Assembly: GCA_035549255.1 (NCBI GenBank)
Contig: DASZRD010000009.1
Coordinates: forward strand, 49,071-113,070
Length of the DNA: 64,000 bases
Reading direction: 5' to 3'
Source: Minisyncoccota bacterium
GTDB taxonomy: Bacteria; Patescibacteriota; Minisyncoccia; Phycocordibacterales; SBAW01
The notes under the pieces were generated by a model. The model did no database searches and was not told the origin of the DNA. It worked only from the letters and a program-made list of their open reading frames with translations. Shown here in pieces: positions 18,001 to 62,046 of this stretch. The position numbers and the translations under genes are program-made. Numbering within the stretch: position 1 is the first letter of the stretch; each line of letters begins with the position of its first letter.

Positions 18001-19170
18001 GATGCCGGTATTCAGCCTGGCGACATCGTTTCGGCAGATACGACGCATTTCGAGGGTGTGCGCAAGAGCAGCCCGTATGCTGATTCGCAGCTGATGGGCG
18101 TCGTCTCCACCAACCCGAGCGTCGTCATCGGTACCCCGGTCAATCAAAACGGCAATATCGTGCCGATCGCCTTGCGCGGCCGCATCCCGGTGAAGGTCAA
18201 CCTCGAGGGCGGCGATATCGCCGTGGGCGACCGGATCACGCTCTCGTCGGTGTCAGGCGTCGGCAAGAAGGCGGGTGACCTCGACCAGAGCATCGGCATC
18301 GCTCTTGAGCCGTTCACCGCGCAATCGACGACCACCTCCGTGCTCGTGTTCCTCGACATGCAGCAGGGCGACAACGTCGGCGCGCTCACTAATACTCTGC
18401 TCGGCACCTCGACCGCCACCAGCACTGCTACCAGCACGCCGCAAACAGGCTTTCTCTCGGTGCTCTTCTCCCGCATCGCGAGCTGGCTCGGGGGCGCTGG
18501 CAACGGCATCGCGAACATCTTCACGCAGACGCTCACGGCGACCGTCGTCAACGCCGATACGGTCAACACCAAGCAGCTCTGCATCACCGACGCCTCGGGC
18601 GGCAAGACCTGCGTCACCAAGGCCCAGCTCGACCAGCTCCTCCAGGGCCAGGGAGGTAGCGCGGGCTCTGGCGCAGGGTCCGGTTCAGGTTCGGGCGGCG
18701 CAGGATCGGGCAGCGGCACGACGATGCCCGCAAGCCCCGACCCTGACGCGCCGACGATCACGATCAATGGCGCCAACCCGGCGATGCTCGTGGTAGGCGA
18801 CACGTATGCCGACCTTGGCGTGACGGTGAGCGACGCGCAGGATCAGAATCTCGGCTACCTCGTTTCGCTCGACGGTGCTGCGACCACGACGCCCGACCAG
18901 ATCCATATCGACACGTCGGCCGCAGGAACGCATACCATCACGTACGTCGCGACCGATAACGACGGCAATGTCACGACCGCGCTGCGCACCGTAATCGTCC
19001 AGGATGCGGCGAGCTCGACGCCGTCCGTGCTTCCGCCGGTTGATACGGGCGATACCGGTACCACGACCGGAAGCGGCGCCGATGCGGGCGGCACGGCGAC
19101 CTCGACCGATGCCGGGGCGGGTGCCGGTACCGCACAGGGCGGCGAGGGCACGACTACTCCGGCGGAGTAA
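1..19170 (+). CDS. Giant repetitive cell-surface protein, 5'-partial; more than 6387 aa lie in the window
   Basis: The open frame continues from base 1 with no stop upstream of 7 and ends at TAA 19168-19170. It is Ser/Thr/Gly/Asn-rich. Its parts are 44-aa SQNGYLSS-DWT-FNNK repeats, an LVIVD-like propeller, repeated CGGGGSPFPFTP modules, a GS linker and an Ig-like C-terminus. Confidence 0.85.
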   Translation, partial: AVVGDNSFTFDGTTLNAPAAVFTTLTNLGSANLGTVSTGVWHGTAIADSYVADNLTISGGTINNTPIGAATPSTAVFTNATSTNATTTNFYASGQTRLGSLTGLVSANGGIVTAVATNTLGLLGSTSLSATAPLAYNSSTGVFSISQASGSQDGYLASVDWTQFNNKVSSTSLSATGPLAYNPATGVFSLDQAGTSQDGYLSSADWNVFNNKISSSSLSAAGPLSYNSSTGQFTISQASGSQNGYLSSGDWTIFNNKVSSSSLALVINQAYPFPQAGNGTSTLTQFNGGITAYASSTISALTSIFATTSSFAILNVPSALLTTNAQGQVVATSTLGVAYGGTGSSTLGGILIGNGRGSVTSANVSAPLSFSGNTLSIQAASGSQNGYLSSADWTTFNNKISSTSLSAAAPLSYNSSTGQFTISQASGSQNGYLSSSDWNSFNARLSTTTLGLFDKGYFFSTTSADYYLSQQSLVGFSTTSANYWKTQNNFFSTTSAIYFANASTTIPKTYTANTFTGAQTFQNGITTNALSVGSLTGPLQAIGGVVSSTSTLSIIYGGTGTSTPPTYGKVLLGNAQGGYDLVGTSSLGLITNNSLSAIVPLQYNTGTGVFSIQNAKADSSTLGAATFASNDFNDNGSGLISIDYANAQKATGSQAGLLASSDWNVFNNKISSSSLSGASVIAYNGTTGVISTQAGTFGGNASSVYTFPGDLVTTGTATTTNLYIGGTISGANLSSCSGASDKLLWNSSTQQFSCGTDAGASGSDVNWTHFNNSGIRVTTATDQVLIGFTSTSSLSKLEVHGGATIDNATTTNLVTTGVAYFSGNVGIGTTSPYQSLTVASGNILQVAGSNPTLATSTAVGGSTYGVYTSGNYAYVAAGSVRIVDTTQPGASKVVGSYTGTTQAQSIVVSGKYAYVGDASAGLAILDVSNPASPTLVGSLNYSTVGHPLSIALSGRYLIVPDFDSGKVSVVDIANPAAPAVVGTYTTGGAPATVALSGKYAYIGDQADGNIYIEDISNPAKPVALSPYTGLLGPQAIYISGRYAYVADIAGGLYALDISNPASVSLAGSKTGTGYYTVEVAGDYAYVTDSSGNLVVLDVHNLGSITTAGTYATGVSPRGLALSGKYAYVTSGNSTLKVVDINGAKLPAASIGTIETNSINVADAVKVGGDGFFGGGLNVGASGIFSRGGLAVLGSTTLTDLIAKNATTTNATSTNLYASSLIAGNATSTNLSVSGVASTSNLYISNLVAGALAITASGKAYSFSTSTWTFASSTLLGDSNTFSGGNKFTGNTTLANATSTNFALTNITNALLSTNANGSIIPTTISSPLTFSGNTLSIQQATASQNGYLSLTDWNTFNDKISSTSLSGASVISYDSSSGVITTQPGTFGGSGTYAFPNDVQANGNITAEVDGGASSGPNINLVNSGGFGVGGINFFTYAGQTVPSAQWEAEDVGNWTADQIFSTSVGGGTDAPLAARLIIKGTTGYVGIGTTSPLTTLSVGGNTYLGGSLTATGTVQFSNLAAGAVAATANGQLYTFSTSTWTFASSTLLGDSNTFSGNDTFTTAPKLGSLTGLVAGNSGNLYGLSTSSLNASITGQAGNVANSVTFNNGGSGASSGSTFNGSSAVTISYNTIGAVPATRNINTTFPLQGGGSLASDLTITSAFGTTTTTGLTPNQILYTNANGVLTTAASSTLNLPNAALQNSSVTVNGITCTLGSTCTVASTTLLANSNIFSGNNTFTGNTTLANATSTNLALTNITNALLSTNGSGSIIPTTVSSPLTFSGNTLSIQQANGSQNGYLSSTDWTQFNNKVSSSSLATIINSAYEFPGNATSTQLTFNGGLVATGATTTNLAVTGTASTSNLFISNLAAGALGINASGKAYSFSTSTWTFASSTLLSDSNTFSGNNKFTNPITLGTLNGPLQANNGVVSATSSVGVLYGGTGLTSAPSYGNILVGNSSGGYTLTATSSLGLASLSSFSATAPLSYDSSTGVFSISQANGSQNGYLSSVDWTAFNNKISSTSLSGGTGINYTSSTGVITNTGVIAVGPAGQTQNGTVTIASTTASFNGLTFGVQTVGAAGTLTNTPTIAGTLDNSGLTHSTIGLADANSTLTVSGSPAALGASLSATLNLAHGNIWTAASTTFVGGVTIGSATTTNLVATNATTTNLAITSLANTLLSVNAQGAVVATSSLSVNYLAGVLPVGNGGTGSSTLGGILTGNGTGQVTSAQVSSPLTFSGNTLSIQAASGSQNGYLSSTDWTTFNNKISSTSLSASAPLSYNSSTGQFSISQANGSTNGYLTSSDWTQFNAKVSSSSLALVINQAYEFPNNATSTQIAFNGGLTAAGATTTNLSVSGTASTSNLFISNLAAGALGINATGKAYSFSTSTWTFASSTLLGDNNTFSGTDTFTNAPKLSTLTGLISGNSGTLYGTATGTVSGSNGISVTAGQSIIGSGLTITATNAVADASTKGVATFAANDFNDNGSGLISIDYANGQLASGSQNGFLSNSDWNSFNSRLSTTTLGLFDKGYFFSTTSASYFLAQNQGNAFSTTSAIYFANASTTIPKTYTANTFTGAQTFQNGITTNALSLGTLSGPLQANNGVVSATSSIGVLYGGTGLTSAPSYGTILVGNSSGGYTLTATSSLGLAALSSFSATAPLQYDNTTGIFSITQANGSTNGYLSSVDWTAFNNKISSTSLSATGPLSYNPSTGVFAISQANGSTNGYLSSTDWNTFNQKVSSSSLYSYVAGNKDWQIINGALSPTTTLGIGVYASSTIGNGAQSGGLTVNGGATTTGNAYFAGNVGIGTQSPSARLDINASYTTTGFPLSVKNSGYYNAYFQGTNANNQASFYMENDRGSFASYGGFLYGGSTSGLSNLFGAPRADRLFMFADGASNLGYYVGTLTAQPFVIGTNNLERARVDGTTGYVGIATTSPLTTLSVGGNTYLGGNLTATGTVQFTNLSAGAVAATANGTLYTFSTSTWTFASSTLLGDNNTFSGNNTFTNVPKLGGLTGLVAGNSGNLYGLSTTSLNASITGQAGNVANAVTFNNSGSGASSGSTFNGSSAVTISYNTIGAQVAGTYVTSVGATYPLISSGGTAPVISSAFGTSTNWGLGANGIVVTNASGVPFIAASSTLNLPNSALQNSTITVNGIAFNLGDSKTITAASSTLLANSNTFSGNNTFTGNTTLANATSTNLALTNITNALLSTNGSGSIIPTTVSSPLTFSGNTLSIQAASASQNGYLSSTDWTQFNNKVSSSSLAAVVNQAYEFPSNATSTQIAFNGGLTATGATTTNLSVTGTASTSQLYISNLSTGGLGISSTGKVYSFATSTWTFASSTLLGDSNTFSGNNTFTNAPKLGSLTGLVAGNSGNLYGLSTSSLNASITGQAGNVANSVTFNNGGSGASSGSTFNGSGALTVSYNTIGAQVAGTYVTSVNATYPLLSSGGTAPTISTAFGTTTNTGIGSNLFIYTDNNGVFKGAASSSLNLPNSALQNSSITINTSGGLTGGAAVSLGNSISLGCQAASGSQAGCLSSTDWTTFNNKVSSSSLAALNYAAYPFYAAGNATTTLTQFNGGLTAYASSTIGNGILGLTVNGPATTTGNLVVQGSGTSTIAGSLSVSGNLNFNGNLLQNGVPFSSSQWITNGSSIYYGTGNVGIGTSTPYAKLSVAGDIVGGTINATSTTATSTIAGSFNVGNGALSYDVNSGITSINNLQLGAQTFDADAGILSWIDMPVTSASSAGTVESYSAQIDGNPLLTIYSQSDGSGGIQNAAVGIGTTSPFAMLSVQGSGYLAGSLTITGITATGTVQLTSLTGGAVAANPNGTLYTFATSTLTSASSTLLGDSNTFSGNNTFTNAPKLGSLTGFVAANNGTLYQLASSSLNLPNAALQNSSITINGTAFNLGDSKTVAAASSTLLGDTNTFSGTQNAFTNKVGIGTTSPRTTLQVAAGGSGILPQASSIAAFESNSNGYISLLTPDSAENGLLFGSPTGGNADAGIIYNNNTNLRGLTFRTGGNNTHMVIDSSGNVGIGTTSPGATFAVAGDGYLTGALTVGGQTTLAASLNGLLKATNGVVSAAVAGTDYSNFAYPFPLTGNATSSLTQFNGGLTAYATSTIGNGAQAGGLTVSGGATTTGNAYFGGNVGIGTNAPTSALTLALGNSIALYNTADQTTNYERGQIDWTSNALRIETVGGGSGSNSRSVILSSGGANLVTASAGTVKVTLNGGTSGVGPGVLTNGSFNGASTNQVVQSIAPTFNQSGTSGYTALLIQPTETAVGSGNKYLIQAGTSTAATLFAVDNAGNITTNITGSTQCLHVNSSGVISGTGADCGAGGSPFPFTPLALGNATSTLLLLNNGVIAAASSTIGNGTAAGGLTINGSATSTGTTTIQNAFAVTGTNGGVPVSGAGTRLEFIPNLGALRAGQVSSTQWDASNIGTSSFATGLDTTASGGYSAALGYRATASGVGSFAGGYFTDCGMGIISSGIGSFAYGYLNHGVTGCAFTQIQASGNGSVAMGYALAGRTITATQSGSIALGYANNGSITSSGIGSFAVGDGNITSSGSGSVALGYGESGLLSATGQGAVAIGANVNATQNNALAFGSSFTNNIASTFQVGFSATPTLTVTATNTGIGTTSPYAKFSISANGSDTNSTLFAIASSTSGTATSTLFAVSNIGTITTTLGAGAVGVNSLGQLYSFATSSGSAASSTLLADYNTFSHLQQFNGGFTAYASSTIGNGAQIGGLTVSGGATTTGNAYFAGNVGVGTVSPGSTLDVGGTAQLRGAGGGTGLYVNSSGNVGIGTTGQNAKLEIRQDGNGVQTQLVLRNNQGSSNGATSRLGFGVYRDVDATALGAAIDAITTAGIPNGDNAEGAILAFSTTKDGTSGLQERMRILNTGNVGIGTKNPQATLDVQGTASSSNLFVTNAATTTSLAITGLTSQSCIGTNSQGQVVAGTCGGGGSPFPFTPSALGNSTSTLLLLNNGVIATASSTIGNGTATGGLTVNGNSTTTGNVYVAGAIGIGTKSPWASLDVNGSIAIANNNGGSTNKLYLASGDGTHYIYSTGSGVGGNNTYFGEWGGNYHFLDTSNSSEPVTITGGNLGVGTTTPTAKLSLQYNSGDTQTTLFAIASSTGSTAVNLFSVDNTGLTTIGNPTGTGDANIQFGGDATAWSVGNYGGDNSFRIASSTNLANNVAFEVTKAGTASTTNLTISSLGASAGSCLTTDSSGNVTTTTCGGGGSPFPFTPSALGNSTSTLLLLNNGVIAAASSTIGNGNQNGGLTVSGGATTTGNAYFAGNVGINNTLAVGGNVVTSGAQIDSAGVIYSHGTGGISFALNSTGSNYGTIQNDAPDTWSLGTNSMLTGLGTHVLTWTKAGNIGIGTSTPASLLTVSNSNTGTLTYDGTSLTVSPVGTTTTAGAVTITPGAAGGPGLGIKGFNGNSIAQIFTSSGSLRTLQITNTGAGGLQTVFAGGTGKNLIGIGTTSPFAPLSIAANGGDTNPTLFAISSSTAAFATTTLFSVSNTGSTTIANGVNITSGCYAVNGTCLSTGGSGGSPFPFTPSALGNSTSTLLLLNNGVIASASSTIGNGTAAGGLTVNGNSTTTGSLYTGGGITIAGTNPSFVSLSENNGGVSFINYLGSGSDGTGTYITNTSNHSLFLGTNNTTKLTIAAGGNVGIGSTTPGTLLSIGSVNGINFTTATSTFNSTGGINITNGCYAVNGVCLTTGGGSSQWTTSGSSIYYNTGSVGVGTSSPFAKFSVQQNYGDTQTTLFQISSSTATGGATANSFFSVDNTGLTTIGDPSGTGDANFQFANDNHAWSVGYYAGDNSFRIASGTSLASNPAISVDKNGTTTISNGVNIQSGCFSVQGTCLSFSSGAADSQFVSTDGQANITTSTTSLATISITPSTATGDVFVSAKVSMSSKTATDFITSIAVRDTTCTGTIFAQAMASSTSASGSNGSTAFANGLENNPGTTSQTYALCASDTSGTNPATYFLSALVINPGADVAELYSTLDAGIQPGDIVSADTTHFEGVRKSSPYADSQLMGVVSTNPSVVIGTPVNQNGNIVPIALRGRIPVKVNLEGGDIAVGDRITLSSVSGVGKKAGDLDQSIGIALEPFTAQSTTTSVLVFLDMQQGDNVGALTNTLLGTSTATSTATSTPQTGFLSVLFSRIASWLGGAGNGIANIFTQTLTATVVNADTVNTKQLCITDASGGKTCVTKAQLDQLLQGQGGSAGSGAGSGSGSGGAGSGSGTTMPASPDPDAPTITINGANPAMLVVGDTYADLGVTVSDAQDQNLGYLVSLDGAATTTPDQIHIDTSAAGTHTITYVATDNDGNVTTALRTVIVQDAASSTPSVLPPVDTGDTGTTTGSGADAGGTATSTDAGAGAGTAQGGEGTTTPAE
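382..777 (+). repeat. Three tandem 132-bp (44-aa) repeats 'LSA..PL.YNSSTG.F.ISQASGSQ(N/D)GYLSS.DWT.FNNK.SS.S'. More copies are dispersed at about 1080-1320, 3960-4090, 5320-5460, 5890-6080, 6680-6930, 7930-8220, 9630-9770 and 10540-10640.
   Basis: Found by direct inspection of the translated giant ORF and its DNA. Confidence 0.8.
2560..3440 (+). repeat. Eight '(S/A)G.YAYV...L.(I/V)(L/V)D(V/I)SNPA.P..VG.Y' blades, matching the LVIVD-repeat beta-propeller pattern, inside the giant protein
   Basis: The unit recurs every ~40 aa: SGNYAYVAAGSVRIVD..., SGKYAYVGDASAGLAILDVSNP..., SGRYLIVPDFDSGKVSVVDIANP..., SGKYAYIGD..., SGRYAYVADIAGGLYALDISNP..., AGDYAYVTDSSGNLVVLDV..., SGKYAYVTSGNSTLKVVDI... Confidence 0.6.
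14851..14958 (+). repeat. ~100-bp near-identical intragenic direct repeat, copy 1 (GGSPFPFTPSALGNSTSTLLLLNNGVIA module)
   Basis: An ~81-bp stretch 'ggctcaccattcccattcacgccgtctgcgcttggcaactcgacttcgac(t/c)ctgcttctcctcaacaacggcgtcattgc' starts at 14851, 15682 and 16621 and differs at only one base in the third copy. A diverged copy sits at ~12982. Confidence 0.85.
15682..15789 (+). repeat. ~100-bp near-identical intragenic direct repeat, copy 2
   Basis: See copy 1. Confidence 0.85.
16621..16730 (+). repeat. ~100-bp near-identical intragenic direct repeat, copy 3
   Basis: See copy 1. Confidence 0.8.
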
Positions 19171-20219: not shown

Positions 20220-23200
20220 ATGCAGGGCAGGGCAGGGCGCATCATAAAAAAACCGATACAAAGATTCTTCGCGAGCATGCTTGTGCTCGCGCTTGTCGCG
20301 GAAGCCTACGCCCCGCTGCCAACCGTCCTAAAACTTCCTCTTTTTAAGGAAGGTACGGTGCACGCAAGTTCAACGATAGTTACTTACCTTACATCCGGTA
20401 CTTCCTGGACTGTACCTCTCGACTGGAACTCCGCGAGCAATACCATCGAAGTCATCGGCGGCGGTGGGGGTGGTGGTAATGGTGCAAGCGGAGTTGCTGG
20501 TGGCGGTGGAGGAGGTGGCGGCGCATATTCAAAAACCTCGAACCTTTCCTTGGTTCCCGGTAACAGTGTCGCCTATGGCATTGGGACTGGCGGTAGCGCC
20601 CAAACATCTGGCGGCGATACTTTTTTTAACAGAACCTCGGGTTCAGCTAATACTTGTGCAGACGTATCGTCTGTGTGTGCAAAAGGGGGTTCCGGTGCCA
20701 CGAGCGCGACTGGCGCAGGCGGCGGTTCATCTGGAAGCGGCCGAGGAAGCACATTGTATTCTGGTGGCACCGGCGGCACGGTCCCCAGCGGCGGCTCGAT
20801 GGGTGCCGGGGGCGGCGGGGCAGCAGGCCTTAACGGGGCGGGAAAAAACGGCGGCACACCTACCGGCGGCAACCCTGTGGGCGGTTCAGGCGGCGGCGGC
20901 GCTGATAACGGGGCTAATGGTGCTGCCAATACTACAACCACTGGTGGCGCAGGTGGGGCTAACTATCTTGGCTCTGGAGGTGGGTCTGGGGGTACTACGG
21001 GAGTTGGCGGCACAGGTAGTAACGGCGGTGGAGGCGGAGGTGGCGGAGCGGCTACCTCTAATACTTCTTTTGCTGGTGGTGCTGGCGGCGCGGGTATCGA
21101 GTGGGATGCATCACATGGTTCGGGAGGTGGAGCAGGCGGAGCTGCCATGAACGATACTGGCTCTACCGCTGCTACAAATGGCTCTACTGGAGGTCTATAT
21201 GGCGGCGGTGGATCTGGTGGCGCCGCGACCTCCCATGGTGGCTCGACCGGCGGCTCTGGCGCCCAGGGCCTCATCGTCATCACGTATACGCCGGTTGTTC
21301 AAATTTCAACGATCTTTCTTACTTCCGGCACATCCTGGACCGTACCGAACGATTGGAATTCGTCTAATAATACTGTCGAAGTCATCGGCGGCGGTGGCAG
21401 TGGTGGTGCCGCTAAGAATAATGGTGTTAGTTCGGGATCCGGTGGTGGTGGTGGCGGCTATGCAAAAATAACGAATCTAAATCTTACTCCCGGGACTTTG
21501 GTTACTTATCAAGTTGGGGCTGGCGGTACTGCAGTTACTGCCACTGCCGGAAGCGGAAGCGCAGCTGATGTACCAGGGAATAATGGTACAGCCTCATACT
21601 TTAATGGCACGTCTGCCGCTGCTTCAAGTGTCGCAGCAAATGGCGGATCGGGGGGAGGAGCAATCGGCACCTCAGGATCTCTTAGCGGAGGTGCGGGTGG
21701 CACTGTCGTTGTTGGTTCGGGGTATAGTGGAGGCGCCGGGGGTTTAATAAGTGGTAGCGGTTCAAGTGCTCGCGGTACCGGCGGCGGCGGCGCAGGAGGA
21801 TCAAATGGAGCTGGAAATTCGGGTGCGACTTTGTCGGCTACAGGTGCAAGCGATGGGGGTTCCGGCGACGCCGGCTTCGGCGGTTCTTCGACGGGGACAG
21901 CGGGGGCCTTAAATAATACTGCTAGTTCTGGCGGCAACGGGACCGAATGGAATTCTGCGCCCGCGTATGGTGCTGGTGGCGGTGGCGGCGGAGCATATGC
22001 GACTGGGGTAGCTTCTATTGCTGGTGGTGATGGAGGCACCTATGGTGCGGGTAGCGGTGGAGCGGCAAACGATAGAAATTCTTCCGGCTCGGCAACATCT
22101 GGTGCCGGACAACCGGGCATCATCGTCATCACGTATACGTCCTATGTTCCACCCTCCCGCATCATCCGCCTCTTCGGCTCGTATACAAGCGCGCCGATGC
22201 ATATTTACCTTACGACGACCGGCTCGGGCACGTGGACGGTCCCGAGCGACTTTACTTCCAACGGCAGCAGTATCGAAGTCATCGGAGCCGGCGGAGGTAC
22301 GGCAAATACCAACGGCCCCTGCTGCGGCTACGGAGCATACGGGAGCGGCGGCGGCGCATATTCTGAAATTTCGAATGTCTCGCTTACGCCGGGCACTACG
22401 GTCGGCATTAATGTCCCGGCCGGAGGAGCCCCCGGCAGCAGCGGCGGGGATACGTGGCTGTGCAGCTCAACTTCGGGATGTTCATCAATAACTGATACGA
22501 ATGTCATTGTTGGCGCCAAGGGCGGCACAGTGGGGAATCAATCATCGGGCTTAGGTGGCGCATATACATCTGGTGTAGGCACCATAAGATATTCCGGCGG
22601 CAACGGCGGCGTGGGTATCGACACGAATGGCAGCGGCGGCGTCGATTATGCCGGCGGCGGAGGCGGCGCGGGAGGGCCGAACGGCAATGGCGCAAATGGA
22701 GGCAATGGTAGCAGCCTTTCAGAATTCGCTGGCGGCGGCGGTGGCAACGGCGGAGGGTCTGCAGGCCAAGCAGCTTCAACCATAGCGGGAGGCAGTGGCG
22801 GTAATAACTCTCTTGGTTCGGGAGCCGGGGCCGGAGGCAGCAGCAGCAACTCCAATACCTGCAGCGCAGGTACAAATGGCGGTGGTGGTGGCGGAGGCGA
22901 TGGAGGCGCTGGCTGTACTGGCGGTAATGGTACAGAGTGGGACGCCTCTCATGGCTCCGGAGGCGGAGGCGGAGGCGGTTCGACAGGCGGGAACGGCGGT
23001 ACCTATGGCGGCGGGGCAGGTTCTTCAGGCACTACTCCTACCGCAACAGGCGGTCAGGGCATCATTGTCATCACGTACTCACGGCCCAATGTGCGGACAT
23101 TGCGGATTATAGGAGGCGCTGCGCAGCAAATCCTTGGGGGTACTAAGCAAGTAGTTCTTTCGGCCAATCCCGGAGGCGGAAATCAGACATGGATCGTGCC

Positions 23201-24164
23201 AGGAGACTTCAGCTCCCTCATCAAAGTTGAGTGTATTGGGTCTGGAGGGCATGGAGGACAAGGGAATGCTAGTAATGCCGGGGGTGGTGGCGGCGGCGGT
23301 GGAGCTTATGCGTCAACCACGGCGGTTACTGGCCTTACTCCCGGTGCCTCGATATTGTATGCCGTGGGCGCATCAGCAACAACGACTTCGGCAACGAACC
23401 CAGTCGCTAATGCTCGAGAAACGTACTTTAATGGCACCGCATCTTCTACTGCAGCGCTTACCTGTGATTGGGGAAGAATGGGTGGTGTTCCGACAGGCGG
23501 TATTGCAGGCTCGACCGCTTTCTCTGTTCCTTCCTCGAATTCTTCAACGGGCGGTTCTTATGCTGGCGGCTCTGGCGGTGGCGGTTCGAGTGGAACTACG
23601 GGTGGCGGTGGCGGTGGCGGTGGAAGCGCGGGTCCTATTGGAATAGGAAAGTCAGGTGGCACCGCTCAAACCTTAACTAACTTAGGAAGTGCCGGCGGCG
23701 GCGGGGGTTCTAATGGCGGCTCTTCAACTGCTGGGGGTTCACCAAGTTCGGGCGGTCCTGGTGGCAATGGTGGTAATAACACTTCTGGTACAGGAGGTGG
23801 TAGTGGGACGGCAGCATCAATGGGGGGCGCAAGTGCTAGTGCTACGGACGGTTCTAACGGCGGCGGCGGCGGCGGTTCAGGTGGTGCGAATACTACATCT
23901 GGTGCAGGTGGTAGTGGTTCATGCGATACGACTCTTGATGGTAGTACGAGTGGCGCGTGCGGCGGCGGCGGCGGCTCAGGATTCCCAAACGGAGGTACCC
24001 CCGGCCAGCCGGGTGCTGGAGGCGCCTTCGGCGGCGGCGGCGGCGGCGCGAGTTCTCAGATATCACCTCTTGTTCCTGGAGCATCAGGGGGTCAAGGCAT
24101 CATTGTAATTACCTACTCGTCCATTAGTTACCGCCCCGTCATCAAGCTGTATCAATCGCAATAA
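20220..24164 (+). CDS. Gly-rich secreted multi-module protein (1314 aa) with four tandem ~300-aa modules
   Basis: An N-terminal hydrophobic segment is followed by four modules. Each starts '..TSG(T)SWTVP.DW.S..N.IEVIGGGGGG', carries a central 'S.ISN.SLTPGT.V.Y.VG.GG' and ends 'GQGIIVITY(T/S)'. About 45% of residues are Gly. Confidence 0.8.
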   Translation: MQGRAGRIIKKPIQRFFASMLVLALVAEAYAPLPTVLKLPLFKEGTVHASSTIVTYLTSGTSWTVPLDWNSASNTIEVIGGGGGGGNGASGVAGGGGGGGGAYSKTSNLSLVPGNSVAYGIGTGGSAQTSGGDTFFNRTSGSANTCADVSSVCAKGGSGATSATGAGGGSSGSGRGSTLYSGGTGGTVPSGGSMGAGGGGAAGLNGAGKNGGTPTGGNPVGGSGGGGADNGANGAANTTTTGGAGGANYLGSGGGSGGTTGVGGTGSNGGGGGGGGAATSNTSFAGGAGGAGIEWDASHGSGGGAGGAAMNDTGSTAATNGSTGGLYGGGGSGGAATSHGGSTGGSGAQGLIVITYTPVVQISTIFLTSGTSWTVPNDWNSSNNTVEVIGGGGSGGAAKNNGVSSGSGGGGGGYAKITNLNLTPGTLVTYQVGAGGTAVTATAGSGSAADVPGNNGTASYFNGTSAAASSVAANGGSGGGAIGTSGSLSGGAGGTVVVGSGYSGGAGGLISGSGSSARGTGGGGAGGSNGAGNSGATLSATGASDGGSGDAGFGGSSTGTAGALNNTASSGGNGTEWNSAPAYGAGGGGGGAYATGVASIAGGDGGTYGAGSGGAANDRNSSGSATSGAGQPGIIVITYTSYVPPSRIIRLFGSYTSAPMHIYLTTTGSGTWTVPSDFTSNGSSIEVIGAGGGTANTNGPCCGYGAYGSGGGAYSEISNVSLTPGTTVGINVPAGGAPGSSGGDTWLCSSTSGCSSITDTNVIVGAKGGTVGNQSSGLGGAYTSGVGTIRYSGGNGGVGIDTNGSGGVDYAGGGGGAGGPNGNGANGGNGSSLSEFAGGGGGNGGGSAGQAASTIAGGSGGNNSLGSGAGAGGSSSNSNTCSAGTNGGGGGGGDGGAGCTGGNGTEWDASHGSGGGGGGGSTGGNGGTYGGGAGSSGTTPTATGGQGIIVITYSRPNVRTLRIIGGAAQQILGGTKQVVLSANPGGGNQTWIVPGDFSSLIKVECIGSGGHGGQGNASNAGGGGGGGGAYASTTAVTGLTPGASILYAVGASATTTSATNPVANARETYFNGTASSTAALTCDWGRMGGVPTGGIAGSTAFSVPSSNSSTGGSYAGGSGGGGSSGTTGGGGGGGGSAGPIGIGKSGGTAQTLTNLGSAGGGGGSNGGSSTAGGSPSSGGPGGNGGNNTSGTGGGSGTAASMGGASASATDGSNGGGGGGSGGANTTSGAGGSGSCDTTLDGSTSGACGGGGGSGFPNGGTPGQPGAGGAFGGGGGGASSQISPLVPGASGGQGIIVITYSSISYRPVIKLYQSQ

Positions 24165-24764: not shown

Positions 24765-27608
24765 ATGCAGGGCAGGAGACAGACAGTCTTTCATATTCTA
24801 AAAAGAGCATCGGCTGGTTTTCTTATCAGCGCGCTTATACTTGCGGCGTATGTCTCGATCCCAGGCATAGCGCCGCTCCCAAGCGCCTACGCAGCGGTTT
24901 GTGCCGGCGGCACGTACTCCGGCGGCATTTGCACTATTATGCTCACCTCCGGCAGCACCTGGACGGTGCCGAGCGATTGGGGTTCTCCTAATACTATCGA
25001 AGCAATCGGTGGTGGCGGAGGCGGAGGCGGAGGAGGCCGCGGGGGCGGGGGCGGGGGCGCAGCTGCTTTGATATCGAATCAATCGCTTACTCCTGGTACG
25101 ACGCTTGGTATAAATATAGGCGCGGCCGGTGCAGCTGGCGGAACGAACACTGACGGAGGTACTGGTGGCGATACGTGGCTCTGTAGTTCGACTTCGAGCT
25201 GCAGCTCGATTTCCGACACGAATGTTATCGTCGGTGCTAAGGGCGGCTCCGGTTCATCAAGCACTTCCGGCGGCGCAGGGGGTGTCGGCTCGAGCGGCGT
25301 TGGAGCGACAAAGAACTCTGGTGGTGCGGGTGGTAATGCAACCACTACTGGTACGTACAAAGGTGGCGGTGGTGGCGGTGGCGTGGGGGGCCTCGGCGGC
25401 GTGGGCGGTACTGGCGGCGCAGGTAATGGCGGTGGCGGTGGCGGTGGCGGTGCCGCTCTGGGCGGCATAGGCGGTATTGGTGGTGCCGGAGGTTTTGGCG
25501 GCTCCGGTGGTGGCGGAGGTGGTGGCGGTTCTGGAGGTATGAATGGTGGGCAGGGAGGTGCTGGTGGAAGAGGACCTAATAATGATGGCGGTGGCGGGGG
25601 CGGTGGCGGCATCGGAAGCAGCAGTGGTTCTGGAGGTAATGGCGGTATTGGAGGCGATTCGGGTGGCGGTGGCGGTGGCGGTGGCGGCGCTGCAGTTGGT
25701 GGTTCCGGAGGCAATGGTGGCGATGCTGCTGCTTTTGGCGGCTCTGGCGGCGGCGGCGGCTCCGGTGGACCTGGTGGCGGTGCTGGCGGTGCTGGCGGCG
25801 GTGGGGCAAGTTTTGAGCCTTTTGGCGGTGGCGGCGGAGGCATAGGAGGTACTGGTGGCACCGGTGGAGTTGGAGGGACTGCAAATACTCAATCTGCTGG
25901 CGGTGGCGGCGGTGCAGCTTCTTCAGGCGGTGCAGGCGGTGCGGGTGGTGCGGGTGGCACTAGCGGTATTGGCGGTGGCGGTGGCGGCCAGGGTGGTTCT
26001 GGCGCTGGTGGCGGTAGCGGTGCTACTGGCGCACAAAACGGCGGTGGTGGTGGCGGTGGTGGTTCGTCAGGCGCTGGCGGTAATTCAACTTCTTCAACGG
26101 GAGGCGCAGGAGGTTCCGGCGGTGGCGGCGCGGGTGGCACTGGCAATACAAATCCTGGTGGTAATGGCAGTGATGCTATTGGCCAAGGCGGCGGAGGTGG
26201 CGGTGGCGGTAATAATACTGGTAGTGGTACCGGAGGTACCGGAGGTAATAGTGGCGGCGCAGGTGGAGCAAGTCAAAGCAGTAGTTGCGGTGGTGGCGGA
26301 GGTGGTGCAGGCCCTGGCGGAGGCGGAGGTGGAGGATGTGTGATAGGCGGCGCAGGTAGTGCGGGACCTAGTACAACTGGCGGTGGCGGAGGTGGTGGTA
26401 GTTTCGGTTCAGGTGTTGGGGGCGGCAGAGGGGGTAATTCTGGTGGTTCTGGTGGTATTGGTAATGGCGGTGGCGGTGGCGGTGGCCAAGGCGGTGGCGG
26501 TGGCGGTGGTTATAACGGCGGCGGCGCGGGAAGTAGCGGCCCTGGATCAAGCGGCGGCGGCGGAGGTGGCGGCGAGGAAGCTACTCCGGGTGGTGCTGGT
26601 GGAAATAGCGGCGGTGCAGGCGCGAATTATGGCGGTGGCGGTGGCGGTGGCCAAGGCGGTGGCGGTGGCGGTGGCGCAGCAGGTAATGATGGCAGTGGGG
26701 CTATTGGCAGTACTCCTGGCGGCGGCGGAGGTGGTGGAAGCCTTAATTCTTCCATACTAGAAGCTGGTGCCGCAGGCGGCCAAGGGGAAATAATCATTAC
26801 GTATACTCCGCTCGTTCGCGCTCGCACCATTCTTCTTTTCGGTTCGATAACGGGTGGCGTGACGCCCATCCGCTCTTTGCGCGTGATTGGTTCGGGTGGT
26901 ATCTCTCATGCCCAAAAAACAGTCACTCAAAACTACGATGCGCAGGTCGATACTTCGCAGTCAGTATTTGGTGGTGGAAGCGCGCTCTTTGACGGCACCA
27001 ACGACAACCTCCAGCTCGACAGCAGCCCGGATTTTACCTTTGGCACCGGCGACTTCACGATAGATTTCTGGATGCGGCCCAACGTCGTCAATACCGACAT
27101 GGTGCTCTACGACGGCCGGCCGGCCGGCACCAACGGCGCCTACCCGACCATCTATCTCAGCAATACCAACCACATCTCATACCTTGCAAACAACGCCACC
27201 AGGATCACCGGCACTACCAACATCGCGGCCGGCACCTGGTACCATGTCGCTCTTGCGCGTAGCGGCACGGCGACCAAACTATTTCTCAACGGGGTGCAAG
27301 AGGGCTCGACGTATACCGACAGCACGAATTATCTGCCCATGGACACGACGCCGGGGCTGTCGCGACCGCTCATCGGCATACGGTCGACCGACCTCTTGAG
27401 CGGTTTCAACGGCTGGATTGACGAGCTGCGCGTGAGCAAGGGCATCGCCCGCTGGACAACCACGTTTACTCCGCCAAGCGCTGCCTATGTGCCCGATGCG
27501 TATACCGTACTTCTTTTGCATATGGATGGCACCGATGGCCAAGAGACATTTACCGATGCTACTGGAAATCTTCTTAACCGCCAGATAATCATTTATCCTC
27601 TGCAATGA
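24765..27608 (+). CDS. Gly-rich secreted protein (947 aa): one hyper-expanded module plus a C-terminal LamG/concanavalin-like domain
   Basis: It shares the 'MQGR' start and TM segment with the 20220 gene. Its single module runs from 'LTSGSTWTVPSDWGSPNTIEAIGGGGGG' through ~600 aa of poly-Gly to 'GQGEIIITYTP'. The C-terminus carries LamG signatures: 'FTIDFWMRPN', 'WYHVALARSG..KLFLNGV' and 'GWIDELRVSKG'. Confidence 0.8.
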   Translation: MQGRRQTVFHILKRASAGFLISALILAAYVSIPGIAPLPSAYAAVCAGGTYSGGICTIMLTSGSTWTVPSDWGSPNTIEAIGGGGGGGGGGRGGGGGGAAALISNQSLTPGTTLGINIGAAGAAGGTNTDGGTGGDTWLCSSTSSCSSISDTNVIVGAKGGSGSSSTSGGAGGVGSSGVGATKNSGGAGGNATTTGTYKGGGGGGGVGGLGGVGGTGGAGNGGGGGGGGAALGGIGGIGGAGGFGGSGGGGGGGGSGGMNGGQGGAGGRGPNNDGGGGGGGGIGSSSGSGGNGGIGGDSGGGGGGGGGAAVGGSGGNGGDAAAFGGSGGGGGSGGPGGGAGGAGGGGASFEPFGGGGGGIGGTGGTGGVGGTANTQSAGGGGGAASSGGAGGAGGAGGTSGIGGGGGGQGGSGAGGGSGATGAQNGGGGGGGGSSGAGGNSTSSTGGAGGSGGGGAGGTGNTNPGGNGSDAIGQGGGGGGGGNNTGSGTGGTGGNSGGAGGASQSSSCGGGGGGAGPGGGGGGGCVIGGAGSAGPSTTGGGGGGGSFGSGVGGGRGGNSGGSGGIGNGGGGGGGQGGGGGGGYNGGGAGSSGPGSSGGGGGGGEEATPGGAGGNSGGAGANYGGGGGGGQGGGGGGGAAGNDGSGAIGSTPGGGGGGGSLNSSILEAGAAGGQGEIIITYTPLVRARTILLFGSITGGVTPIRSLRVIGSGGISHAQKTVTQNYDAQVDTSQSVFGGGSALFDGTNDNLQLDSSPDFTFGTGDFTIDFWMRPNVVNTDMVLYDGRPAGTNGAYPTIYLSNTNHISYLANNATRITGTTNIAAGTWYHVALARSGTATKLFLNGVQEGSTYTDSTNYLPMDTTPGLSRPLIGIRSTDLLSGFNGWIDELRVSKGIARWTTTFTPPSAAYVPDAYTVLLLHMDGTDGQETFTDATGNLLNRQIIIYPLQ

Positions 27609-41218: not shown

Positions 41219-41294
41219 GCCGCCTTAGCTCAGTTGGTAGAGCAACTCTTTTGTAAAGAGAAGGTCCCCAGTCCGAATCTGGGAGGCGGCTCCA
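41219..41294 (+). tRNA. tRNA-Thr(UGU) with an encoded 3' CCA
   Basis: It folds into a cloverleaf. The acceptor stem is GCCGCCT/AGGCGGC and the D-arm is AGCTCAGTTGGTAGAGC. The anticodon loop is TTTGTAA. The T-arm is GGTCCCCAGTCCGAATCTGGG, followed by a T discriminator and CCA. Confidence 0.85.
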
Positions 41295-59157: not shown

Positions 59158-59754
59158 ATGGAGCAATTTCTCGTCGGGATCGATGAGGCCGGTCGCGGGC
59201 CTTTGGCGGGGCCAGTGGCGGTCGGCGTCGTGGCGGCGCCGTCTTCCTTTAATATGCATTTGCTCGACGGCGTGCGAGACAGCAAGCAGATGACCGAACT
59301 CGGCCGCGAGATCTGGTTTGAGAAATTGCGGGTATTTGAGGAAGAAGAGGGGCTCAAGTGGAATGTGCAATTCTCCTCCGCGCTATATATAGATACCTAC
59401 GGCATCGTGCCCGCAATCAAGCGCGCACTCTCCCGGGCTTTGCGCGCGCTGGAGCTTGACCCTGCTCATGCGCGCATACTTCTTGACGGGTCGCTGAAGG
59501 CTCCCAAGCATTTTCTCGATCAGGAAACGATCATCCGCGGCGACGATAGCGAGCCGATCATCTCGATTGCATCCGTTGCTGCAAAAGTCCGCCGCGACCG
59601 CTTGATGCGCAAGATTGCGATTAAATATCCTGACTATAGTTTTGAAATACATAAAGGGTACGGGACGAAATCGCATCGTGAAGCGATCATGAAATACGGG
59701 TTGAGCGATATGCACCGTGCGACATTCTGTAAGTTGAAAAAAGGGGAGAAATAA
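59158..59754 (+). CDS. rnhB: Ribonuclease HII
   Basis: It has the GIDEAGRGPLAGPV motif. Confidence 0.85.
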   Translation: MEQFLVGIDEAGRGPLAGPVAVGVVAAPSSFNMHLLDGVRDSKQMTELGREIWFEKLRVFEEEEGLKWNVQFSSALYIDTYGIVPAIKRALSRALRALELDPAHARILLDGSLKAPKHFLDQETIIRGDDSEPIISIASVAAKVRRDRLMRKIAIKYPDYSFEIHKGYGTKSHREAIMKYGLSDMHRATFCKLKKGEK

Positions 59755-60057: not shown

Positions 60058-60091
60058 CCCCGACCGTATCCACGGCCGGGGTTTGTCTTTT
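60058..60091 (+). terminator. Hairpin plus T-tract terminator
   Basis: CCCCGACCG-tatcca-CGGCCGGGG carries one mismatch and is followed by TTTGTCTTTT. Confidence 0.5.
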
Positions 60092-60117
60092 AAGGGTATT
60101 TCTGGTATAGTCCTTGC

Positions 60118-60354
60118 ATGGTCAACCATATGAGACATACGCGCTCGCAGACGGCTAACCGCCGTTCGCATCATGCGCTGAAGGTCCACAGCCTCGCTAC
60201 CTGCGAGTGCGGTGCTCCTCGCGTGTCTCATCGGGCATGCCCGGAGTGCGGCCGCTACAATGGCCGGGTCGTTATCGATATCGCCGGTAAGGCGGCAGCG
60301 AAGGCGTCCAAGCGCAAGGCAGCAGAGGGAAGTAAGAGCGAGGCGCAGAAGTAG
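60118..60354 (+). CDS. rpmF: 50S ribosomal protein L32
   Basis: It has the L32 signature RRSHHAL and a C4 zinc ribbon. Confidence 0.8.
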   Translation: MVNHMRHTRSQTANRRSHHALKVHSLATCECGAPRVSHRACPECGRYNGRVVIDIAGKAAAKASKRKAAEGSKSEAQK

Positions 60355-60423
60355 TAATCTGCCTTTTCTCTTGGGTCTATCTCGTGCGAGGTCCGCTCTA
60401 GGTCGGTCAGGCTCTTTGAACTC

Positions 60424-61347
60424 ATGGCAAATAGGCATTTATCCCGCTCGGTCGTACTCCAAACACTCTTCGAGTGTGATGTCCGGAATCTTGCGCCGGA
60501 ATCCGCGCGTGAGTCGCTCATGCGCAATATGACCGAGTTCGCGCCTGCGGCGGGCGATACGCCCTTCGTCGAAGAACTTCTGCGCGGTGTCATCGAGCGC
60601 AAGCAAGACCTTGATCTTGTAATCGAGAAGGCTGCGCCCGAGTGGCCGCTCGAGCGCATCGCGCCCGTCGACCGCAACGTGCTGCGGCTCGGCCTCTACG
60701 AGCTCCTCTTTGCCGACCGCGACAAGGTGCCAGCAAAGGTGGCGATCAACGAAGCGATCGAGCTTGCCAAGACCTTCGGCGGTGAGAATTCCGGCCGCTT
60801 TGTCAACGGCGTCCTCGGCGCCGTCTATAAAGAGCTTGGCGAGCCGGGTAAGGACGAGGTCAGCAAGAAAAAGAAAGACGTCCCGTACGAGGAGATGCCG
60901 GTGCAGCACCTCGGCGGCGCGGTTGTCTACGCCAAGCAGGGCAAGGATGTGTACTTGGCGCTCGTGCACGACATCTTCGGCCACTGGACATTGAGCAAGG
61001 GCAAGATCGGCGACAGCGAGGCGACCAAGAACGAGACGGTTGAAGAGGGCACGATCCGCGAGATCAAGGAAGAGATCGGGCTCGATATCACGATCAAGGA
61101 GAAGATCGGCGAGAACGAGTACGTGGCAAGCGACCCCAAGACGGGGAAGAAGCGCAAGCACGTGACCTACTTCTTGGCCGAGGCGCCGTTTACCGAAGTG
61201 AAGCTCGAGCAGAAGGGCGGGCTCGACGACGCGCGCTGGTTCCGCCTCAAGGACGCGCTCGAGCTCAATTTTTATGAGGACATGCTGCCCCTCGTCACTA
61301 AAGCCGTGCATCTATTAACCGAAACTACTCCGCAGGAAAAGAAATAA
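60424..61347 (+). CDS. nusB: NusB transcription antitermination factor fused to a C-terminal NUDIX hydrolase domain
   Basis: Residues 1-140 are NusB-like (LYELLF, VAINEAIELAK). Residues ~170-300 carry the Nudix box GKIGDSEATKNETVEEGTIREIKEEIGL. Confidence 0.7.
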   Translation: MANRHLSRSVVLQTLFECDVRNLAPESARESLMRNMTEFAPAAGDTPFVEELLRGVIERKQDLDLVIEKAAPEWPLERIAPVDRNVLRLGLYELLFADRDKVPAKVAINEAIELAKTFGGENSGRFVNGVLGAVYKELGEPGKDEVSKKKKDVPYEEMPVQHLGGAVVYAKQGKDVYLALVHDIFGHWTLSKGKIGDSEATKNETVEEGTIREIKEEIGLDITIKEKIGENEYVASDPKTGKKRKHVTYFLAEAPFTEVKLEQKGGLDDARWFRLKDALELNFYEDMLPLVTKAVHLLTETTPQEKK

Positions 61348-61353
61348 CAGGAT

Positions 61354-62046
61354 ATGCAGAAGGATTTCGTGCAGTTCGAGAAGTCGATCAGCATCACGTT
61401 CCATAATTTAAAGCTGCTCCGCCAGGCCTTCACGCACCGCTCGTACCTCAACGAGCACCGGAGCGAGGGCGGCGAGCACAACGAGCGGCTCGAGTTCTTG
61501 GGCGACGCCGTGCTCGAGCTTGTCTCGACGCGGTTCCTCTTTGATAAATTTCCGACGTATCCGGAAGGCGACCTCACGGCATTCCGCGCTGCACTCGTTA
61601 ACGCGGTCACGTGTTCAGAAGTCGCAAACGAATTGGGCATGAATGAGTATCTTTTGCTTTCCAAGGGCGAGAGCAAGGACAACGGCCGCGCGCGCGGCGT
61701 TCTCCTCGCTAATGCCTTCGAGGCGCTGGTGGGCGCTATCTATCTCGACCAAGGCTACGACGCCGCGCAGCAATTTATAGAGAAGCATCTGCTCCCTAAG
61801 CTCGACATGATCGTCAAGAAGAAGCTCTGGCGCGATGCAAAGTCGACTCTGCAGGAGAAGGCGCAAGAGGCTGAGGGCGCGACACCCTCCTATGCCGTTA
61901 TCCGTGAGACAGGTCCCGACCACGACAAGCAGTTCGTCGTTGGCGTATATGTACGTGATACGCAGCTCGCGCAAGGCATGGGCAAAAGCAAACAAGAAGC
62001 CGAGCAATCGGCAGCCCAAGCCGCCCTTGAAGCCAAGGGGTGGTAA
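61354..62046 (+). CDS. rnc: Ribonuclease III
   Basis: It has the RNase III signature ERLEFLGDAVLEL and a dsRBD C-terminus. Confidence 0.9.
   Translation: MQKDFVQFEKSISITFHNLKLLRQAFTHRSYLNEHRSEGGEHNERLEFLGDAVLELVSTRFLFDKFPTYPEGDLTAFRAALVNAVTCSEVANELGMNEYLLLSKGESKDNGRARGVLLANAFEALVGAIYLDQGYDAAQQFIEKHLLPKLDMIVKKKLWRDAKSTLQEKAQEAEGATPSYAVIRETGPDHDKQFVVGVYVRDTQLAQGMGKSKQEAEQSAAQAALEAKGW

Follow-up and report, generated by a model that had tools for sequence, protein, structure and literature searches.

The analysis of a 64-kb window, meaning the whole stretch of DNA that was studied, identified a gene in which the coding sequence of the antitermination factor NusB, which assists RNA polymerase in rRNA synthesis, continues in frame into that of a Nudix domain. 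This fusion is real and conserved, and apparently undescribed, and it is the housekeeping NusB of the organism that encodes it. The best reading of the evidence, to which we assign a probability of about 0.45, is that the fused domain constitutes an adenine-nucleotide-binding module carried by an antitermination factor, and that this module is hydrolytic in the clade to which the window protein belongs. The parts of the gene, in window coordinates, are the following.

60424..61347, + strand: nusB::nudix fusion gene, a single ORF with an ATG start, encoding 307 aa plus stop
60424..60843, + strand: NusB domain, residues 1-140, with seven helices (4-138)
60844..60900, + strand: Lys-rich flexible linker, residues 141-159 (EPGKDEVSKKKKDVPYEEMP), with AlphaFold2 pLDDT below 50 at residues 141-152
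60901..61323, + strand: Nudix domain, putatively of the ApnA-hydrolase type, residues 160-300
61000..61083, + strand: variant Nudix box G193-x10-E204-x7-REIKEEIGL, residues 193-220, which matches the relaxed pattern and fails the strict one
61015..61029, + strand: clade-specific insertion of 5 residues in the Nudix-box loop, at about residues 198-202, a gap in all PDB alignments

The 307 codons of this frame (60424-61347, + strand) are free of internal stops and frameshifts. The Pfam NusB model (PF01029) matches residues 7-136 with an E-value of 2.5e-35 and 122 bits against a cut-off of 23.1, covering profile positions 3-133 of 133, and the NUDIX model (PF00293) matches residues 165-290 with an E-value of 9.3e-13 and 48.8 bits against a cut-off of 21. 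With a single ORF and both Pfam domains above their gathering scores, the in-frame NusB-Nudix fusion proposed in an initial sequence-only reading of this DNA is borne out, and all the motifs cited in that reading (LGLYELLF, KVAINEAIELAKTFGG, GRFVNGVLG, the SKKKK linker and REIKEEIGL) are present in the translation.

The N-terminal half presents the features of a canonical NusB protein. It scores 125.6 bits against the NCBIfam nusB equivalog model TIGR01951 (cut-off 88.35), and an AlphaFold2 model computed on a 139-sequence alignment (mean pLDDT 84, pTM 0.68) predicts for it the seven-helix, all-alpha NusB fold, which superposes on the NusB subunit of solved NusB-S10-BoxA complexes. An RsmB-type, NusB-like paralogue was considered as an alternative identity and is ruled out by the TIGR01951 score, the synteny and the fold ranking; RsmB models match only residues ~8-151, with 20-66 bits against cut-offs of 269-540. 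Residues Y18, E75 and E81 of E. coli NusB, which we take from the NusB-NusE literature to be those contacting NusE/S10, align to F16, E77 and D83, all conservative substitutions, and D83 is invariant in the family. By this alignment, the NusB half keeps the S10/NusE-contacting positions of the E. coli protein, and it is predicted to bind S10. In the same structural model, the all-helical region (residues 4-138) is followed by a disordered linker (141-152, pLDDT <50) and by an alpha/beta/alpha Nudix fold (160-300). Both domains are modelled with confidence; the pTM value is consistent with two independently placed bodies, and no confident inter-domain geometry or interface was detected in the AlphaFold2 model.

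The gene calls at the locus confirm the conserved rpmF/nusB/rnc/smc neighbourhood that had been proposed from the sequence, with the following features flanking the fusion gene.

upstream, opposite strand: dnaE
59158-59754: rnhB
60083..60111, + strand: promoter-like site ahead of rpmF (consensus scan 9/12, extended -10 TG)
60118..60354, + strand: rpmF (ribosomal protein L32; PF01783, E 2.8e-14), a conserved upstream neighbour
61354..62046, + strand: rnc (RNase III; Ribonuclease_3 plus dsrm), beginning 7 nt past the fusion stop codon
62067..64000, + strand: smc, N-terminal part (SMC_N, E 3.9e-33), running off the window

The rnc gene is probably co-transcribed with the fusion gene. The promoter and terminator scan returned counts near the shuffled expectation, the promoter count not exceeding it, and located a terminator-like site only at 62020-62044, which constitutes weak evidence; a unit encompassing rpmF, nusB::nudix and rnc and starting at the promoter-like site is hence only a hint. 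An Rfam scan of the window returned no rRNA or leader elements, and hence no rRNA operon whose leader might contain BoxA.

Comparison with 84 related loci revealed that the rpmF-nusB-rnc order is general among them, with rpmF lying upstream of nusB in most. A plain nusB gene of about 140 codons occurs at 27-28 of these loci, in the sister Patescibacteria Yanofsky-, Moran-, Azam-, Staskawicz- and Wildermuthbacteria, and neither Nudix-like sequence nor a split form with separate nusB and nudix genes was detected within 4 kb of any of these NusB-only loci. In the fusion lineages, the Nudix domain is placed exactly between the NusB core and rnc. No assembly among the best 80 GTDB loci holds both a fusion and a separate NusB, and no second NusB or Nudix was found within the 64-kb window. 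Since the synteny is shared with relatives that possess a plain NusB and lack Nudix sequence within 4 kb, the fusion occupies the orthologous nusB slot, and is thereby the positional orthologue of plain nusB. The adjacency of rnc, which lies directly 3' of nusB in fusion and NusB-only loci alike, says nothing specific about the function of the Nudix domain, because lineages devoid of that domain present it as well. It may still be related to the genetic connection that is known to exist between RNase III and the Nus factors (PMC4807359).

The fusion is recurrent and widely distributed. In a search space of 5.8 billion proteins, the best 120 hits are all about 300 aa long, present 78-96% identity and contain both Pfam domains; they were drawn from assemblies in NCBI, JGI, ENA and Logan, where the only name given to them is "NusB" (Candidatus Paceibacterota / Adlerbacteria). 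More than 240 listed protein clusters from these four sources carry both domains in about 300 aa. An exhaustive HMMER search of 1.84 billion 50%-identity representatives yielded 146 hits below 1e-30, and the best 150 representatives include 55 full-length fusions and 22 two-domain fragments (77 in total), with identities down to ~30%. When a profile of divergent fusions was used, the 8000 candidates scored all had E<1e-20, and the best 120 were two-domain proteins. Among the best 80 loci in GTDB species genomes (Paceibacteria, CPR), about 52 are fusions, each recovered as a single tblastn match in one frame spanning residues 1 to ~300; a survey of related NusB homologs for the same extension, suggested in the sequence-only reading, has thus returned it in some 52 species genomes. 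Fusion-bearing groups include the Kaiser-, Zambryski-, Nomura-, Ryan-, Niyogi- and Komeilibacteria.

Within the close clade, conservation is approximately equal in the NusB domain (0.87), the linker (0.89) and the Nudix domain (0.89); between clades, the linker differs in both length and sequence. A neighbour-joining tree of the NusB domain places most fusions in one large clade, which is weakly resolved and not cleanly monophyletic. A few relatives present C-terminal extensions that lie beyond Pfam recognition. Four "Nudix-only" representatives were examined, and two of them (L086 and L089) are contig-edge fragments of the fusion. The other two (L087 and L088) are complete ORFs of 142 aa on contigs of 600-700 nt, in which a MutT-like N-terminus gives way to fusion-like sequence at REIKEE; one of the two shows a break in GC3 and is a chimera.

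Both sequence and structure comparisons point to a (di)adenosine-polyphosphate (ApnA) hydrolase type for the Nudix domain. The best solved relatives by sequence are Chlamydia CT771 (1e-5), T. thermophilus Ndx1, human Ap4A hydrolase and Dcp2, and the top Foldseek matches of the predicted structure are Aquifex Ap4A hydrolase (TM 0.87), M. tuberculosis Rv2985 diadenosine polyphosphatase and Ndx1 (0.85), together with C. elegans Ap4A hydrolase and CT771. The residues that define the nucleotide pocket have been documented in human Ap4A hydrolase: the P1 phosphate is bound by Lys42, Tyr82 and Lys89, the adenine is sandwiched between Tyr82 and Phe128, and its amino group is recognised by Glu130 (PMC4734340). 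In the alignment, human Lys42, Tyr82, Lys89, Phe128 and Glu130 correspond to K192, Y233, K245, Y284 and D286, and these pocket residues are invariant in 139 sequences, with the exception of D286, which is either D or N. The phosphate-binding His of the "K-G-H" motif is replaced by K194 in the window protein ("SKGKIG"), and KGH is present in some divergent fusions (P0137, P0142, P0166 and P0176). The conservation of the pocket aromatic residues could reflect fold stability, not ligand binding.

The NCBIfam models for RppH (NF001936), NudC and MutT all give scores well short of their cut-offs, and the NAD+ diphosphatase model reaches 21 bits against a cut-off of 158. An RppH identity was rejected on this basis, the match to NF001936 lying below the curated cut-off. 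The sequence-only reading had put forward decapping of NAD or ppp RNA 5' ends and turnover of (p)ppGpp or Ap4A as functions for the domain. Judged by sequence and modelled fold, the better-founded of these options are turnover of Ap4A and the removal of 5' ends of the Np4 or ppp type, a NudC-type NAD-decapping function appears weaker from the model scores, and nothing supports the (p)ppGpp option. There is precedent for Np4A hydrolases doubling as RNA 5'-decapping enzymes (PMC8833179, PMC7044304), and E. coli RppH likewise hydrolyses Np4A and removes Np4 caps (PMC8833179).

The Nudix box had been described as canonical (G-x5-E-x7) on first inspection, and this description does not hold. The strict pattern G-x5-E-x7-RE[U]xEExG[U] has no match in the window protein, which instead reads G-x10-E-x7-REIKEEIGL owing to an insertion of 5 residues in the loop. 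This insertion is found in 18 of the 139 sequences of alignment A2 and is absent from all 52 of 52 divergent fusions; it could alter or abolish activity. The catalytic Glu residues, the absence of which had been named as grounds for abandoning the proposal, are present: E204, R212, E216, E217 and G219 show no variation among the sequences of the close clade (121/121), and E213 is found in 118/121. Sister groups at 55-70% identity mostly present a strictly canonical box (83/139). Given the invariance of the metal-binding residues and the mostly canonical boxes of the sister groups, selection appears to act on catalysis in the clade of the window protein.

A different picture emerges in the divergent set, composed of the window protein and 52 representatives of 50%-identity clusters (n=53). 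R-E-x-x-E-E is found in 10 of the 53 sequences and R-x-x-x-E-E in 9 more, and in 31 of them no more than two of the four catalytic residues remain. The domain is nevertheless not undergoing overall decay: its pairwise identity relative to that of NusB is 0.71 in lineages with a degenerate box and 0.77 in those with an intact one. In the degenerate group, G165, D183, F185, W188, K192, Y233, Y249, W272 and Y284 stay 80-94% conserved, and pocket residues K245 and D286 are conserved at 77% and 84%, respectively. Across divergent fusions, the pocket residues are 63-100% conserved whether the box is intact or degenerate. These conservation patterns indicate that the whole family shares the fold and its adenine/phosphate pocket, with hydrolytic chemistry predicted only in some clades, the window's included. 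Because over half of the divergent clusters have lost the motif and the pocket has been kept, a purely enzymatic reading cannot explain the retention of the fusion. Residue conservation suggests instead that the shared function could be nucleotide binding on an antitermination factor, with hydrolysis retained in the clade of the window protein.

According to the best reading, the NusB half, together with S10, would bind BoxA on nascent transcripts, chiefly of rRNA, as it does in other bacteria, and the linker of about 20 residues would hold the Nudix domain within reach of the transcribing polymerase. The Nudix domain would then bind a ligand of the adenosine 5'-polyphosphate type and, in the clade of the window protein, probably hydrolyse it. 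The likeliest ligands would be the pppA- or Np4-capped 5' terminus of the nascent leader, or a free alarmone of the Ap4A type. Since sister lineages keep the pocket and lose the catalytic glutamates, the ancestral role across the family is probably ligand binding, in the form of sensing or 5'-end capture, and hydrolysis would constitute an activity added or retained in clades like that of the window. A more specific version of this proposal, which we regard as possible and on balance unlikely, is co-transcriptional: the Nudix domain, delivered through NusB, S10 and BoxA to polymerases engaged on rRNA operons, would capture the pppA- or Ap4-capped 5' end of the nascent leader and hydrolyse it where the box is intact, and merely hold it in box-dead clades. 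The status of the pre-rRNA 5' end, or of its alarmone cap, would in this way be coupled to antitermination and to downstream processing by RNase III.

Several other explanations could account for the fusion. That a sequencing or assembly error, or an overlooked stop or frameshift, joined two separate genes is vanishingly improbable: the frame is uninterrupted, the linker is conserved within the clade, and read-through is ruled out by the recurrence of the same one-frame architecture in ~50 independent GTDB assemblies and in hundreds of clusters from four repositories. The genomes of the CPR are compact and rich in fusions, which lends some plausibility to a housekeeping ApnA-hydrolysing or nucleotide-sanitising Nudix enzyme having become joined to nusB through loss of the intergenic stop in a streamlined genome, with co-expression as the only consequence and no mechanistic link to antitermination. 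The disordered linker and the prediction of two independent bodies are in keeping with such an origin, and the short contigs carrying L087 and L088 suggest that free-standing relatives beside rnc may exist. We nevertheless consider this account improbable, for the fusion persists throughout a radiation of class rank (both domains are found in 77 of the best 150 50%-identity representatives), the locus is without a Nudix gene in the NusB-only relatives and, among the Nudix-only representatives examined, two of four are contig-edge fragments and a third is chimeric. An independent housekeeping enzyme would also leave unexplained why the domain is retained and constrained even when catalysis is lost.

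The remaining alternatives assign the domain a role in transcription. The Nudix fold could serve as a non-catalytic structural subunit of the rRNA antitermination and chaperone complex, contacting RNAP, NusA, S4 or RNA in a manner analogous to E. coli SuhB, with any hydrolase activity being vestigial. This appears doubtful, given that the metal-binding residues are invariant in the close clade (121/121), that the box is strictly canonical in most of the sister groups (83/139), and that the residues conserved throughout the family map to the nucleotide pocket and outline no obvious new surface. It is likewise conceivable, with a low probability, that the domain operates as an alarmone sensor, binding free Ap4A/ApnA or ATP to modulate the activity of NusB, much as the Nudix-fold effector domains of NrtR, AraR and NadQ do for their regulators, with hydrolysis resetting the signal where the box is intact. 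Speaking against such a sensor are the disorder of the linker and the lack of any predicted interface between the domains that could transmit binding; regulators of the NrtR type, moreover, make use of dimerisation or DNA release, for which NusB has no obvious equivalent.

A search of the full-text literature returned no description of a NusB-Nudix protein; subscription journals lie mostly outside its coverage, and this absence does not amount to proof. Public databases already contain these sequences with their Pfam architectures, labelled only as NusB. NusB is regarded as a small, single-domain and universally conserved adaptor, and the fusion departs from that view: the only detectable NusB of a class-level CPR branch, encompassing thousands of sequence clusters, carries a predicted nucleotide-binding or nucleotide-hydrolysing domain. 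Should this domain work at the transcription complex, rRNA synthesis in these organisms, whose regulatory repertoires are minimal, would have a new input, either alarmones of the Ap4A type or RNA 5'-end chemistry, and the intact and dead variants of the domain would constitute a natural series for separating binding from hydrolysis. Were the co-transcriptional version correct, a Nus factor would prove to be covalently tied to the chemistry of RNA 5' ends, a connection not known before. If the fusion serves only for co-expression, annotation is still affected, with a Nudix activity hidden under the NusB label, and the frequent degeneration of the Nudix box in this family calls for caution in annotating it. 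The fusion would surprise specialists in Nus factors, though both of its parts are familiar, and it raises a testable question.

Comparison with known systems delimits what is distinctive in this protein. Canonical NusB proteins (TIGR01951/PF01029; T. maritima 1TZT, E. coli 3D3B, Aquifex 3R2C/3R2D) are single-domain and about 140 aa long, whereas the fusion possesses an additional C-terminal region of ~165 residues that encompasses the linker and the Nudix domain. In RsmB/Fmu, the 16S rRNA m5C967 methyltransferase, an N-terminal NusB-like domain is also part of a larger protein, but that domain is a paralogue that has diverged, and a true NusB is encoded separately in the genome; in the fusion, the joined domain is the orthologous NusB itself, and its partner is a Nudix domain instead of a SAM-dependent m5C methyltransferase.

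With the ApnA hydrolases (the Ndx1 Ap6A hydrolase 1VC8, Aquifex 3I7U, CT771 4ILQ/4MPO, human NUDT2 3U53 and Rv2985 9CXX), the Nudix domain of the fusion has in common the W-x-x-x-K-G strand, the Tyr/Phe pair that stacks on adenine, the E-x7-REUxEExGU helix, the acidic adenine reader and the phosphate-binding lysines. It differs from them in its covalent attachment to NusB, its loop insertion, the Lys that replaces the "KGH" His and an identity of 23-28%, and many members of the fusion family have, in addition, lost the catalytic glutamates. Given this identity, the missing KGH His and the loop insertion, the domain is not filed here as an orthologue of these enzymes. RppH, NudC and Dcp2, which deprotect RNA 5' ends, belong to the same superfamily, and Dcp2, which is among the fold hits, resembles the fusion in presenting a helical domain followed by a Nudix domain.

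Two further systems illustrate how enzyme folds can be put to regulatory use. In NrtR, AraR and NadQ, a Nudix fold acts as the ligand sensor of a transcription factor, although these proteins are DNA-binding repressors, unlike the NusB fusion. Non-catalytic Nudix domains of the NrtR type combine a degenerate box with a retained ligand pocket, a state that is met in 31 of the 53 divergent fusion sequences; the window protein presents instead an intact catalytic set. SuhB, in turn, has an enzyme fold and depends on NusB for its entry into the rrn antitermination complex (PMC4807359), and thus offers a case of a metabolic-enzyme fold serving the Nus complex, but it does so as a separate subunit, unlike the fused Nudix domain. 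By analogy with both, the fact that members of the fusion family have so often lost catalytic residues would fit the precedents set by NrtR, AraR and NadQ and by SuhB.

A 275-aa protein (P0005) encoded on a 177-kb NCBI/Logan contig presents 100% identity across 90% of the query and is the exact public counterpart of the fusion gene; gene calling seems to have truncated its N-terminus by about 32 codons. The start at position 60424 is favoured because the N-terminal sequence M-A-N-R-H-L-S-R is conserved throughout the family.

Seven NusB relatives of 225-298 aa (P0145, P0156, P0182, P0208, P0213, P0237 and P0242) carry C-terminal stretches of 70-160 residues in which no Pfam family was matched. 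P0182 was still aligned by phmmer to residues 1-260 of the fusion, and P0145 presented a sub-threshold cytidylyltransferase-like match. These C-terminal parts may be what is left of Nudix domains after extreme degeneration, or else different domains added to NusB.

Complete stand-alone Nudix ORFs of 142 aa each were also identified on two short contigs, L087 (601 nt; rnc lies after the Nudix ORF) and L088 (695 nt). In both encoded proteins (P0263 and P0192), residues 1 to ~54 resemble MutT and include a canonical box, whereas the sequence from the REIKEE motif onward shows about 50-90% identity to the Nudix domain of the fusion. These ORFs may represent assembly chimeras or real free-standing relatives. 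L087 is a chimera, since its GC3 rises from 0.26 to 0.61 where the MutT-like and fusion-like parts join; the same check revealed no GC3 jump at L088.

Elsewhere in the window, the following features were outlined:

7-19170, forward strand: single 6,387-codon ORF in which LVIVD repeats are recognised (E 7.8e-52) and which ends in a surface domain of the bacterial Ig-like type; its true start may fall upstream of the window
20220-24164, forward strand: large ORF of 1,314 aa with no Pfam match
24765-27608, forward strand: large ORF of 947 aa with a Laminin_G_3/ConA-like domain
41219-41291, forward strand: single tRNA gene; nothing else in the 64 kb reaches the Rfam gathering threshold

The Rfam scan of the 64-kb window detected no rRNA, riboswitch or leader element. 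Given its LVIVD repeats and C-terminal Ig-like domain, the product of the 6,387-codon ORF is a giant surface protein within a small CPR genome. The two large ORFs adjoining it present GC3 values of 0.48-0.49, versus 0.62-0.85 in nearly all other large ORFs of the window; they could be surface genes that are foreign in composition or that evolve rapidly.

Many GTDB-representative MAGs harbouring the Paceibacteria-type locus (L011, L014, L018, L061, L062 and others) bear the record title 'uncultured Candidatus Saccharibacteria' or 'uncultured Bdellovibrionales'. Submitters probably chose these names as generic labels or in error.

The rpmF-nusB-rnc gene order (window 60118-62046) is maintained across many Patescibacteria lineages (related loci L005-L084), with or without the Nudix fusion. 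This arrangement is of interest because rnc mutations have been reported to suppress nus defects (PMC4807359), and it differs from the genomic context of nusB in E. coli, where the order is ribE-nusB-thiL.
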